Shown: positions 34,732 through 59,743 of the stretch, piece by piece
Layout: every line of letters begins with the position of its first letter
Numbering within the stretch: position 1 is the stretch's first letter
DNA from: an uncultured Gammaproteobacteria bacterium
Lineage (GTDB): Bacteria; Patescibacteriota; Patescibacteriia; Veblenbacterales; UBA10138
Assembly (NCBI GenBank): GCA_964453605.1
Contig: CAYVOI010000001.1
Coordinates: 102,276-166,275, forward strand
DNA: 64,000 bases
Direction of reading: 5' to 3'
The notes under the pieces: model-generated
The model's database searches: none
The model's input: the letters and a program-made list of their open reading frames with translations, nothing else
What the model was told of the DNA's origin: nothing
Position numbers and translations under genes: made by a program

Positions 34732-34755
34732 CGCACCGCGGTAAATTGCGGTGCG
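34732..34755. terminator. bidirectional terminator hairpin
   Basis: CGCACCGC-ggtaaatt-GCGGTGCG. Confidence 0.55.
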
Positions 34756-34784
34756 AGCGAGAAACTTGTTGTAGGGCGTCGCCT

Positions 34785-34967
34785 TTATTTGTGGAACGCG
34801 AGCTCTTCGTGTGGATCAAGCTCAATTAGCTCGTTGGGCTCGGGAATCTGTTTGGGTGTAGAGCGGACTTTGTGCATTGCGGCTATGACCACGCTGCCCA
34901 GTGCAGCGAACACAAATACAGTGACGATCTTTTTCATCATGTTGTCCTTTTGTGTTTTGTGATACAC
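34785..34967 (-). CDS. small membrane protein (60 aa), hypothetical
   Basis: One TM helix IVTVFVFAALGSVVIAAM. Weak support. Confidence 0.3.
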   Translation of the reverse strand: MYHKTQKDNMMKKIVTVFVFAALGSVVIAAMHKVRSTPKQIPEPNELIELDPHEELAFHK

Positions 34968-35024
34968 GGTTAATTAGCGAACAGAACATGATAGCACGTT
35001 GAGGTAAAATGTCAAGTCCTTAGG

Positions 35025-41693: not shown

Positions 41694-43028
41694 TTGTCAA
41701 TCCTTGAGGTAGAGGTAGATAATGGTCTCATGCCTCTGATGTCTAGGTTCCGCTTATGGGTCTTCTACTTTTTAGTTTTTTTCCTCCCCTGGCAAACGAG
41801 GTGGATTATTCGCGATACCTATATCCGTGGTGGTGTGTGGGAGTACGGACGGGTGAGCCTGTACGGCTGGGACGTTCTGCTTATACTGTTGGTGCTTGTA
41901 AGTTGGCCGGCTACAGCCGAGGTTATTAAAACTTGGCCTAGGCTGCCGCGTGGTCAGCGGTTGCGTGCTACAGTGTTCAGTAATCCGTTGGTACTGTACT
42001 GTGCCTTTTTGGCGTACGCTTTTTTTAGTACGCTCTGGGCGCCAGATTCAGTTCTCGTTTTGTATTGGGGTTTGCGCTTGGGCGAAGTGGGCCTACTGTG
42101 GCTGCTCATCAGAGTTCTTAAGCCAAAGCTCGCAGGCATTTGGCTCAGCTTGTGCGCCGCGGGTACGGTGCAGGCCTTGTGGGCAGTATGGCAGTTCCTC
42201 AACCAGAGTACGTTTGCTAGTAAGTGGCTTGGCGTAGCCACTCATTCTCTGAGCTCGCCAGGTACGTCAGTGGTGCTTACCTCAACCGGCCGCTGGCTCA
42301 GGGCCTACGGCGGGCAGGTGCACCCTAACGTGCTCGGCGGGTTGCTCGTTGTTACGTGCCTCGCTACGGTGTGGCTGTACCTTAGGGTCCGAGAGCGCAA
42401 CTTACGCGTAGCTCGTCTATTAACCTTGATTGCCATTGCGGTACAAGCAGCTGGTTTGTTTTTCTCATTTTCTCGTGGAGCCTGGGTCGCACTTGTTGCA
42501 GGTTTAGTTCTGTGGTGGTTACTCCATAACGCTTCCCGCCGCGCACTGTTGCTGCCTACGTTAGCTGCTCTAGGCACGCTGGTGGTTTTAGGCGCGGTCT
42601 GCTGGCAGCCCACCGCCGGCCGCCTCTTTGGCGGCAGCCGCTTGGAGCAGCAATCGCTCGATGACCGAGTGGGCGAGGCGGGGGAGAGCAAGGCGTTACT
42701 CCGTACGCACTGGTTTGCTGGGGTGGGTTTAGGTAACTACACCCGCGCGCTCTATGACGCTGAGCCCAACCGGCCAAGCTACCTCTACCAGCCCGTACAT
42801 AACCTCTTTGTGCTCGTGCTCACCGAGCTGGGAGTGGTGGGGTTAGGCTTACTGCTCTGGCTGCTGTGGGTCTACCTGAGCAGCCCTACCTTGCGCTACG
42901 ACCTTATATTCTTAACCCCCGTGCTTACCGTGGCCCTACTCGACCACTACTGGTGGACGTCCGGCTCCATGCTATTGTTAGGCAGCTTGGTGTTAAGCCT
43001 ACCAGAGCAATCCACAGCCACCCCTTGA
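41694..43028 (+). CDS. O-antigen ligase/polymerase-like polytopic membrane protein (Wzy_C family)
   Basis: About 12 TM helices. Block FSFSRGAWVALVAG and a periplasmic loop are typical of O-antigen ligase-like proteins. Confidence 0.5.
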   Translation: MSILEVEVDNGLMPLMSRFRLWVFYFLVFFLPWQTRWIIRDTYIRGGVWEYGRVSLYGWDVLLILLVLVSWPATAEVIKTWPRLPRGQRLRATVFSNPLVLYCAFLAYAFFSTLWAPDSVLVLYWGLRLGEVGLLWLLIRVLKPKLAGIWLSLCAAGTVQALWAVWQFLNQSTFASKWLGVATHSLSSPGTSVVLTSTGRWLRAYGGQVHPNVLGGLLVVTCLATVWLYLRVRERNLRVARLLTLIAIAVQAAGLFFSFSRGAWVALVAGLVLWWLLHNASRRALLLPTLAALGTLVVLGAVCWQPTAGRLFGGSRLEQQSLDDRVGEAGESKALLRTHWFAGVGLGNYTRALYDAEPNRPSYLYQPVHNLFVLVLTELGVVGLGLLLWLLWVYLSSPTLRYDLIFLTPVLTVALLDHYWWTSGSMLLLGSLVLSLPEQSTATP

Positions 43029-43224
43029 CACATAGTGCTGATTGATCTATCGTTATTTGGCTGGAGTGAGGACGTAATCTTTGAAGTTCCTCCGGGTTCC
43101 AGCACCCCGCCGCCGGTCGGGTAATAAAACCGGTAAACAAAGCAACACGGAAGGCCCCGCCATTAGTGGGGTATATATAGTTAGTTAACTTAGACGCCCC
43201 TGTGTACACAGAGGCGTCTTTTCC
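43025..43224 (+). ncRNA. candidate small RNA unit 1: promoter-like TTGACA-N17-TATCGT, about 150-nt body, strong terminator
   Basis: Promoter module TTGACACATAGTGCTGATTGATCTATCGTTATTTGG. Terminator AGACGCCCCTGTGTACACAGAGGCGTCT plus TTTT at about 43191-43224. No ATG-initiated ORF. Confidence 0.35.
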
Positions 43225-43235
43225 TTATCTTCGTT

Positions 43236-43373
43236 TTGACAAATAGTGCTAATTGATCTATCATTAATTTCACTGGCGAACTGGCGACCCTCCAGGACCC
43301 AATACCGGCGGGTAATAGTCGGTAGAAACAAGGTGAGGCCCCTCGACGTGGACCGAGGGGCCCGTTTATTTTC
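43236..43373 (+). ncRNA. candidate small RNA unit 2 (paralog of unit 1): TTGACA-N17-TATCAT promoter, about 95-nt body, terminator
   Basis: Promoter module TTGACAAATAGTGCTAATTGATCTATCATTAATTTC, 31/36 identical to unit 1. Body shares CCGGYGGGTAATA..CGGTARAAACAAG with unit 1. Terminator AGGCCCCTCG-acgtggac-CGAGGGGCC plus TTTATTTT. Confidence 0.35.
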
Positions 43374-43379
43374 TTTGTC

Positions 43380-43408
43380 TTGACACAGCTAAAGTCAGCC
43401 TTTATACT
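43380..43408 (+). promoter_or_regulatory. groESL promoter
   Basis: TTGACA, a 17-nt spacer, then TATACT. Confidence 0.6.
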
Positions 43409-43423
43409 GGTAATGCTGTTGAA

Positions 43424-43450
43424 TTAGCACTCTTGAAGTCAGAGTGCTAA
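43424..43450 (+). promoter_or_regulatory. CIRCE element (HrcA operator)
   Basis: TTAGCACTC-ttgaagtca-GAGTGCTAA is a perfect match to the CIRCE consensus TTAGCACTC-N9-GAGTGCTAA. It sits between the promoter and groES. Confidence 0.85.
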
Positions 43451-43484
43451 TTCATACTCTAATCCATTTAATTTGTGGGTGTTT

Positions 43485-45433
<1,949 letters not shown>

Positions 45434-58524: not shown

Positions 58525-58705
58525 TTTGGTTAATGGTTTTGAACTTAAGGTGGTGTTCGAACTCCTTCTGCAGCAGCCTGAAGCGGTTCTGCGCCTCGGC
58601 CAACTGCCACCTCAGGTCGCTGATGTGGTCGAGCACGGCGTTGATGTCATCGGCTATTTGGCTAGCTTTACGCATGAGGTTGGGGTGATAATGGTAATTG
58701 GGCAA
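58496..58705 (-). CDS. small hypothetical protein
   Basis: 69 aa, overlaps neighbours by a few codons. Confidence 0.3.
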   Translation of the reverse strand: MPNYHYHPNLMRKASQIADDINAVLDHISDLRWQLAEAQNRFRLLQKEFEHHLKFKTINQNEYDNRRTD

Positions 58706-58856
58706 GGTCGGCTTCGGTAATAGGCTGGTATATGAGCTGCATCAAACGAACCAGCTTAGTGCCCTGCTCCAACGCCTGTTCACGGCTAATCTCACGGCCG
58801 AAGCGGGCGTGGTATAACTTTTGAAAAGCGGCGATTTGTTCGTCCGATAGGTGCAT
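58668..58856 (-). CDS. small hypothetical protein (possible regulator)
   Basis: 62 aa and helical. Preceded by a bidirectional hairpin. Confidence 0.3.
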   Translation of the reverse strand: MHLSDEQIAAFQKLYHARFGREISREQALEQGTKLVRLMQLIYQPITEADLAQLPLSPQPHA

Positions 58857-59482
58857 AAAAAAATCCCCTCTGATGAAGGGGGTTTATTTACTGACGACAA
58901 CAGAAAACAACCCCACTTGGGCTATTCTCCGTTTGCGACCTCGGAAGGGCTAAGCTCGGCCCTCAGAAAGCAGACAACAGTTCACGTGCTGCCTTAATGC
59001 GACAAGATGTAGTGCCGGTCATTTCCCTCCGATGCCCACTGAGTGAACCAGTGACCATACCCACGGTATGGTATCCGCGCTAAAGAAGCGTGAACGTACC
59101 GGATAAGGCACTACTACCGCGTACGCGACAGGCCAGGTATGTAAGGGCCCGGCTCGCCGTACTGCATTATAGGGTTAATAAAGGAACTCTAGTGGTTGGA
59201 TTCGTTTACTAAACTTAGTCATACCACAGTTTCCGAAAGTACCCAAGGTAACCTTTATCCACACCTACCAAGATACCTATCAAGAAATAAATTGAGCTTG
59301 AATTTTGCTGTAACTTCTGGTAAAATTTTACATGCAAGTATACAAGTATAATAGCCTAAACCTAGGTAGCCCTAGGCATGGCTCAAAAACTCATGGTAGA
59401 TACTGAACCTCACGTTCAGCAGCTCTACCATGAGTCATGTCCCGAAAGGGGTATGGGCCGCAAGGCCAGCTGACGTGGGGTT

Positions 59483-59731
59483 TTGTGTACCCCACACCTA
59501 AGCCTTAATTACCTCCCTATGAGTCTCAAAACCTGGATTGGGCAGCTCTACAGTACACCACTGAACCTACTACTGGCCGTGGCTGCGCTGCTCGTCATTC
59601 TTTACTACGGCACTCATCTCTATGACTGGTTCCGACCGCAGACATACCAGGAGAAGTACATGCACTGTCTGGAACTTGGTAGTGATGCGCGGGCTGGAGC
59701 ATGCGTGAAGCTCCTTAAGGGTCAAAACTAA
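59483..59731 (+). CDS. small membrane protein, hypothetical
   Basis: 82 aa, one TM helix. Confidence 0.35.
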   Translation: MCTPHLSLNYLPMSLKTWIGQLYSTPLNLLLAVAALLVILYYGTHLYDWFRPQTYQEKYMHCLELGSDARAGACVKLLKGQN

Positions 59732-59743
59732 GTCTCAACCACT

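Follow-up and report, generated by a model that had tools for sequence, protein, structure and literature searches.

Two tandem promoter-to-terminator units upstream of groESL in a Patescibacteria genome: candidate small-RNA genes with promoters apparently recycled from the groE control region

The subject of this report is a pair of tandem units without a conserved open reading frame (ORF) that lie directly upstream of the chaperone genes groES and groEL, and in the same orientation, in a 64-kb stretch of DNA (64,000 nucleotides of contig CAYVOI010000001.1, positions 102,276 to 166,275 of the forward strand; hereafter the window, with coordinates counted from its first letter). The genome belongs to the Patescibacteria (Candidate Phyla Radiation, CPR), bacteria with tiny genomes and few regulators, and is compact, tending to purge junk DNA; relatives of its GroES in GTDB are labelled Candidatus Veblenbacteria and Kuenenbacteria, to which the window genome is close, and in the protein collection the window proteins were found on one contig only (876,493 bp). 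The gene preceding groES encodes a membrane protein of the Wzy_C/O-antigen-ligase family. The gap between these two genes measures 456 nt, against a median inter-ORF gap of 82 nt in the window, and ranks among the window's longest; the two units, of 211 and 144 bp, account for 355 bp (43025–43379). The region recurs with 100% identity over 491 nt in L182, a Logan assembly made independently from run SRR12313480, and is therefore not an assembly artefact of a metagenome-assembled genome. The G+C content of the unit bodies is 52–60%, versus an intergenic mean of 48%. The features of the locus are the following.

41694–43028, + strand: gene for a membrane protein of the Wzy_C/O-antigen-ligase family (ORF list; its identical protein P0121 matches Pfam PF04932)
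43024–43032, + strand: left 9-nt direct repeat CTTGACACA, containing the −35 box of unit 1
43025–43058, + strand: promoter repeat of unit 1, with −35 TTGACA at 43025–43030 and −10 TATCGT at 43048–43053
43032–43046, + strand: box in unit 1 resembling the CIRCE right arm (12/15 to the extended right arm)
43192–43223, + strand: terminator T1, with a hairpin at 43192–43219 (interrupted 11-bp stem) and then UUUU
43236–43269, + strand: promoter repeat of unit 2, with −35 at 43236–43241 and −10 TATCAT at 43259–43264
43243–43257, + strand: box in unit 2 resembling the CIRCE right arm (13/15 to the extended right arm)
43337–43372, + strand: terminator T2, with a hairpin at 43337–43362 (9-bp G+C stem), CG and then UUUAUUUU
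43379–43387, + strand: right 9-nt direct repeat CTTGACACA, containing the genuine groES −35 box
43380–43408, + strand: genuine groES promoter (P3), TTGACA-17-TATACT
43424–43450, + strand: perfect CIRCE, TTAGCACTC-N9-GAGTGCTAA, 0 mismatches, with arms that extend to 14 nt (43420–43454)
43485–43781, + strand: groES
43799–45433, + strand: groEL

An initial annotation of this DNA had pointed to two near-identical 36-bp segments; the near-identity holds, with the count corrected from 31/36 to 30/36, and over the direct repeat at 43025–43058 and 43236–43269 the copies agree at 30 of 34 positions. A 27-nt consensus of the repeat occurs in the window at these two sites only, with 0 expected. Both copies open with TTGACA, followed 17 nt later by a −10-like hexamer, just as had been described: TTGACA-17 nt-TATCGT in unit 1 agrees with the sigma-70-type consensus at 10/12 positions and TTGACA-17 nt-TATCAT in unit 2 at 11/12, and the two promoters (P1 and P2) are among the window's best sigma-70-like matches. 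Of the 17 promoter matches scoring at least 10/12, 12 fall in intergenic DNA, which makes up 13% of the window. Since such matches concentrate in intergenic DNA, the organism appears to use a sigma-70-like consensus, which makes P1 and P2 credible as promoters; judged by their letters (−35 box, spacer of 17 ± 1 nt and TATAAT-like −10 box), both conform to the sigma-70 type. The TGA stop codon of the Wzy_C gene (43026–43028) sits within the first TTGACA, the −35 box of unit 1.

The promoter spacers, conserved between the units at 15 of 17 positions, carry a AGTGCTRATTGAT box between the −35 and −10 hexamers. This box had been likened to the right half of CIRCE, the controlling inverted repeat of chaperone expression, and the likeness is present in both copies: besides the matches to the extended right arm listed above, the core arm is matched at 7/9 positions in unit 1 and 8/9 in unit 2. 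By definition CIRCE is an inverted repeat, which HrcA binds as a dimer. No left arm was found in the units at any spacing of 6–12 nt (best match at most 4/9); neither unit contains a CIRCE, and the sole full one is that at 43424–43450. The authentic groES promoter and the perfect CIRCE thus come last in the array, as the annotation had them.

The source of the repeat can be traced further. The unit 2 promoter without its −35 box aligns with the local CIRCE right arm plus groES leader at a score reached by 5/2000 shuffles, and with the same segment of a relative (L005) at a score reached by 1/2000, and the new −10 box TATCAT overlies a leader box, TAATCAT, that is conserved ahead of groES in relatives. 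These significant alignments support the proposal that the groE control region was recycled. Read at the sequence level, the unit promoters join the groES −35 box to the CIRCE right arm and the groES leader, and in this fused promoter TAATCAT would now serve as the −10 box (TATCAT/TATCGT). A fusion of this composition, lacking the left arm, points to descent from the groE control region rather than to a second operator. Three AGTGCT(A/G)ATT boxes, at 43034, 43245 and 43443, are spaced 211 and 198 bp apart; these spacings correspond to ~20.1 and 18.9 helical turns, which puts all three on approximately the same side of the helix.

Each unit ends in a stable G+C-rich hairpin followed by a U tract, as is characteristic of intrinsic (Rho-independent) terminators, with folding energies of −16.6 kcal/mol (z −4.9) for T1 and −20.5 kcal/mol (z −3.0) for T2; the description of the units as bodies without an ORF closed by strong terminators is upheld, with no ATG present between 43029 and 43412. 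In T1 the outermost pair has a predicted probability of 0.84 and the two pairs inside it exceed 0.99; for T2 the value is >0.98. In folds predicted for the nascent RNA, the 5′ arms of the terminators are not paired with the upstream body, no alternative (antiterminator) helix appears, and blocking the terminator would cost 11–18 kcal/mol; the mutually exclusive structures of a riboswitch or attenuator were not found. Termination at both T1 and T2 looks constitutive in these models. Because the terminators are favoured and their 5′ arms are free, riboswitch-like read-through into groESL is argued against. The end of T2 lies 8 nt from the groES −35 box.

The transcripts expected from the two units, and their parts, are listed below; the assignments come from folds, except for the pseudoknot, which was read from the sequence.

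43060–43226, + strand: predicted RNA 1, ~165 nt
43060–43103, + strand: 5′ hairpin of RNA 1
43104–43134, + strand: core of RNA 1, with S1 formed by ACCC (43104–43107) and GGGU (43119–43122), S2 by 43112–43117 and 43129–43134, and loop GGGUAAUA
43135–43142, + strand: A-rich tail of RNA 1, with an internal hairpin following at 43154–43172
43271–43372, + strand: predicted RNA 2, ~100 nt
43281–43284 and 43292–43295, + strand: 5′ hairpin of RNA 2 (CUGG/CCAG)
43297–43324, + strand: core of RNA 2, with S1 formed by 43297–43300 and 43310–43313 and S2 by 43303–43308 and 43319–43324 (43303–43309 and 43318–43324 in its 7-bp form)
43325–43332, + strand: A-rich tail of RNA 2

The same order of elements recurs in both bodies, namely a 5′ hairpin closed by CUGG(A)/(U)CCAG, ACCC, a G+C stem, an A-rich tail and a GGCCCC hairpin. 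The G+C stem comprises 6–7 bp and bears the GGGUAAUA loop in both, with arm sequences that differ and pairing that is kept, and the tail reads AAACAA(A)G in both. The GGCCCC hairpin is the terminator itself in unit 2; in unit 1 it is internal (43154–43172) and is followed by 45 extra nt with T1. In both units the upstream ACCC could, from its letters, pair with the loop GGGU, and the core can therefore be drawn as a classical H-type pseudoknot whose junction is 1 nt long and whose third loop is rich in A. Three strings annotated as common to the units, AGTGCTAATTGA, CCGGYGGGTAATA and CGGTARAAACAAG, are exact in unit 2 only; unit 1 departs from them by one substitution or by 1-nt insertions or deletions (indels).

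Conservation is uneven along the units: 30/34 positions are identical in the promoter, versus 60/105 ungapped columns in the remainder, which contains 73 gap columns in addition (Fisher p = 0.0008). The bodies are poorly alignable, yet their similarity is above chance, with the observed score reached by 5/500 mononucleotide and 2/300 dinucleotide shuffles. Together with the 34-nt repeat, this supports the view that the units are paralogous promoter-to-terminator modules. On sequence grounds, each unit pairs a promoter and a terminator of its own with a body free of a conserved ORF, the arrangement expected of a small-RNA gene. No match to the covariance models of Rfam 15 was found at gathering thresholds, and at E ≤ 10 only chance-level matches appeared, for the whole window, a 651-nt region and each body alike. 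Two other sources for the bodies, decayed groES coding sequence and the groEL 3′ end with its terminator, were tried and rejected, both showing similarity at chance level. Target prediction by RNAduplex, run against the window's 55 start regions, was uninformative: the duplexes were unrealistically long, no top target was common to the two RNAs, and groES ranked 44th. At the predicted 5′ end of RNA 2 there is a perfect 8-nt tandem duplication (ACTGGCGA ×2, 43272–43287), which suggests recent replication slippage; scans for tRNA, tmRNA and tandem repeats yielded only this microduplication.

The orthologous region was compared in 12 GTDB genomes (GroES 65–89% identical) and six further metagenomic relatives, ~18 in total, of which the closest have GroES at 94% with Wzy_C at 68% (L180, L181, L173) or GroES at 86% with Wzy_C at 67% (L178). 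In the relatives where Wzy_C is the upstream gene, its spacer to groES is short, at 78 (L178), 93 (L176) or 98 nt (L180), being longer only in L177, where a structured insertion follows CIRCE. The position of the Wzy_C TGA inside the downstream −35 TTGACA is conserved across the clade (window 43026–43028; L177:1942–1944; L178, L180), and no terminator separates Wzy_C from groES in the relatives. In relatives the stop codon overlaps the groES −35 box itself; in the window it overlaps P1, and P3, which is orthologous to the L180 promoter along its whole length, lies 355 bp farther on. Because the relatives' upstream stop codon sits inside their groES −35 box, the 355 bp are a lineage-specific insertion. 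The insertion is flanked by the 9-nt repeat CTTGACACA, and the two units end alike, with a T-rich tail and then TTGACA. The simplest history consistent with these junctions would be that, in this lineage, recombination at the −35 box produced an insertion or duplication, which was then duplicated in tandem.

Taken together, the observations are best accommodated, albeit only tentatively, by two orphan paralogous small non-coding RNA genes, independently transcribed and constitutively terminated, within a lineage-specific insertion or duplication. The two units are probably young small-RNA genes with promoters recycled from the chaperone promoter region, present in this genome only. Several results weigh against this. 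By the annotation's own yardstick, conservation of the bodies or terminators in relatives, the units fall short: they are missing entirely at the orthologous site in ~18 relatives (L001–L012, L174–L181), the closest included, and conservation in related genomes, a further mark of small-RNA genes, is thus not seen. A descriptor search with loosened limits covered 543 kb, made up of the window and ~479 kb of related loci; it recovers both units and gave no further convincing copy. Scans of viral contigs and metagenomes, which demanded exact matches to the body motif and so would miss diverged homologues, returned 54 viral matches, visibly in coding DNA and about the chance number, and 38 metagenome matches, near chance and none like the units. 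With two copies only, the pseudoknot fold has no statistical covariation support, and its S1 is just 4 bp; the whole-unit folds are not significantly stabler than shuffles (z −1.6 and −1.8); and the high promoter identity could reflect gene conversion rather than selection.

The confinement to one lineage, the unremarkable fold scores and the possible gene conversion make a functionless relic a serious rival, if a less probable one than small-RNA genes: illegitimate recombination or tandem duplication at the groES promoter would have left two decaying copies of rearranged DNA that retain promoter-like and terminator-like sequences by chance and whose transcripts, if any, would be noise. A 9-nt border repeat is typical of microhomology-mediated rearrangement, the microduplication in unit 2 would be slippage still under way, and the bodies are poorly alignable and match no known RNA family. 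Neutral decay should, however, erode the units evenly, and the promoter is 88% identical, compared with 57% and many gaps in the rest (p = 0.0008); moreover, two different strong terminators have been kept, the order of the three hairpins has survived large indels, and a genome with a median gap of 82 nt tends to purge such material. The same border repeat would also suit a mobile or foreign element of 355 bp, for example one resembling a miniature inverted-repeat transposable element (MITE) with a 9-bp target duplication. This is highly improbable: the insert has no terminal inverted repeats and does not qualify as a MITE or an insertion sequence, no other copies occur in the window, BLAST against phage and plasmid collections gave no match, the G+C content is not foreign, and homology links the promoter boxes inside the insert to the local groES leader. 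Least credible of all is that the units encode small proteins, namely a 35-aa ORF at 43081–43188 (TTG start) and a 45-aa ORF at 43246–43383. Both are in the ORF list, and a Shine–Dalgarno-like GAGGA precedes the first TTG by 8 nt, but the region has no ATG, the second ORF begins inside the promoter, ahead of where transcription could plausibly start, and the two peptides, both of low complexity, bear no relation to each other. Coding is very unlikely because the block common to both units falls in a different frame in each (GGT AAT versus GTA ATA) and the indels are not multiples of three.

The remaining alternatives tie the units to the expression of groESL. The annotation had suggested that the transcripts might be HrcA- or heat-responsive. 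Under such control HrcA would act on the half-CIRCE boxes and so regulate the small RNAs together with groESL; the boxes could also serve as auxiliary operators looping to the full CIRCE. The boxes match 12 and 13 of the 15 positions of the extended right arm and, lying between the −35 and −10 hexamers, would put a bound protein in the path of RNA polymerase. HrcA control nevertheless appears unlikely: the units carry just half of an operator, and HrcA, from general knowledge, binds the inverted repeat as a dimer; furthermore, descent from the CIRCE arm and leader fully explains the resemblance, and the core arm of unit 1 is already substituted (GCTGA for GCTAA). It stays a minority possibility because 15/17 spacer positions are kept, beyond the need of promoter function alone, and because the boxes are 211 and 198 bp apart, close to whole helical turns. 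Marginally less probable still is that the units are cis-acting conditional terminators (riboswitch, attenuator or thermosensor), where signal-driven read-through of T1 and T2 adds HrcA-independent expression of groESL. Their co-orientation with and position directly upstream of groESL would fit, as would the resemblance, from general knowledge, of a pseudoknot-like core with an A-rich tail beside the T2 stem to small pseudoknot aptamers, and in some relatives the groES leader contains a structured element of another kind. Against this stand the lack of antiterminator pairing, with terminators at P ~0.84–1.0 favoured by 11–18 kcal/mol, the distance of 50 nt between the unit 1 core and T1, the full promoter and operator that groES possesses 8 nt past T2, and the failure of any Rfam aptamer to score even at E ≤ 10. 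Equally doubtful is a more ambitious version, in which an exapted groE control region supplies a fused promoter driving two RNAs with a previously undescribed pseudoknot fold, and in which the half-operators could still link the RNAs, or groESL via DNA looping, to HrcA and heat. Overall, the annotation's paralogous units and their groE origin stand, and HrcA or heat responsiveness remains unsupported, as does conservation.

If the units are indeed small-RNA genes, they would owe their origin to recombination at the −35 box, within the 9-nt repeat CTTGACACA; the product would then have been duplicated in tandem, and the copies would have diverged. Selection would have kept the promoter and the core RNA fold, that is, the 5′ hairpin, the pseudoknot or hairpin displaying GGGUAAUA, the AAACAA(A)G tail and the GGCCCC hairpin. 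A target RNA or a protein would most likely be contacted through the exposed GGGUAAUA loop or the pseudoknot, together with the A-rich tail. Incidentally, T1 and T2 may shield the HrcA-controlled groES promoter from read-through originating in the Wzy_C gene; in relatives, Wzy_C transcription could run straight into groES.

Other elements were noted in the window and in the related loci. In three relatives with GroES 89–91% identical, a structured insertion of ~150–170 nt lies between CIRCE and the groES start (L177:1999–2153, L174:185–335, L002:2832–3000). The insertions of L174 and L177 align at a score of 106, versus 15 for shuffles, and have two G+C-rich helices in common with some compensatory changes, and AAGCTACGGCG is common to all three. 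Without an Rfam match, these insertions may represent an undescribed cis-regulatory groES leader of this clade. Homology between them and the unit bodies was considered and rejected: the strings CGGCGGGTA and CCCGCCA-TAGTGG, common to bodies and leader insertion, looked suggestive, but the similarity is not significant, with the scores reached by 18/300, 64/300, 52/300 and 169/300 shuffles. In a more distant CPR relative with GroES 58% identical (L016, ~2590–2775), a promoter-like TTGACA, a ~150-nt hairpin-rich stretch without an ORF and a T-run terminator lie just upstream of the groES promoter; this stretch is unrelated in sequence to the units, and its sole Rfam match is a spurious microRNA. 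Elsewhere in the window, a clear LOOT RNA (Rfam RF03000) was found at 59353–59467 (+ strand) with 88.2 bits (gathering score 46.4), in a 1.2-kb stretch without long ORFs (58525–59743). A compact small-gene unit at 34732–35015 (− strand), between two convergent genes, consists of a near-consensus promoter (TTGACA-16-TATCAT with TG), an ORF and a terminator; the ORF, of ~50 codons, begins MMKKIVTVFVFAALG, and its peptide is probably membrane-bound or secreted. Its promoter at 35015 (− strand) was examined as the possible start of another unit and rejected, as it drives this ordinary small ORF.

To our knowledge, almost nothing has been reported on small regulatory RNAs in Patescibacteria, and the literature yielded nothing relevant on half-CIRCE sites or on the small RNAs of this group. 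The practical value of the units is limited, given an uncultivated organism and their presence in one genome. If expressed, the units would offer a clean example of the birth of small-RNA genes, in which a promoter and operator were cut, fused and tandemly duplicated, with the state before the event kept in many relatives and the state after it in one lineage.

Among known systems, the closest parallels in layout are, from general knowledge, PrrF1/PrrF2 of Pseudomonas and OmrA/OmrB of enterobacteria, which likewise are adjacent and co-oriented, each with its own promoter bearing a near-identical regulatory segment, its own terminator and a partly diverged body. The unit pair has no sequence relation to the PrrF or Omr RNAs, and whereas those pairs are conserved across genera and have full operators for Fur and OmpR, the present pair is predicted only, is confined to one genome and carries half an operator. 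The architecture of the preQ1, SAM-II and fluoride riboswitch aptamers is similar, again from general knowledge and in architecture alone: a predicted pseudoknot of ~30 nt with a 1-nt junction, an A-rich third loop and an A-rich tail, followed by a terminator. Unlike those aptamers, the units obtain no Rfam score at E ≤ 10 and show no antiterminator coupling and no conservation outside this genome; each also has its own promoter and precedes another promoter rather than a regulated ORF. The CIRCE/HrcA promoter of groESL shares with the units the −35 box, 12–13 of 15 nt of the right arm plus leader, in the same order, whereas the units lack the left arm, carry the box in the spacer rather than downstream of the −10 box, and precede RNAs without an ORF instead of chaperone genes. 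We classify the pair as orphan small-RNA genes, unvalidated, with an unusually legible origin in the groE control region.

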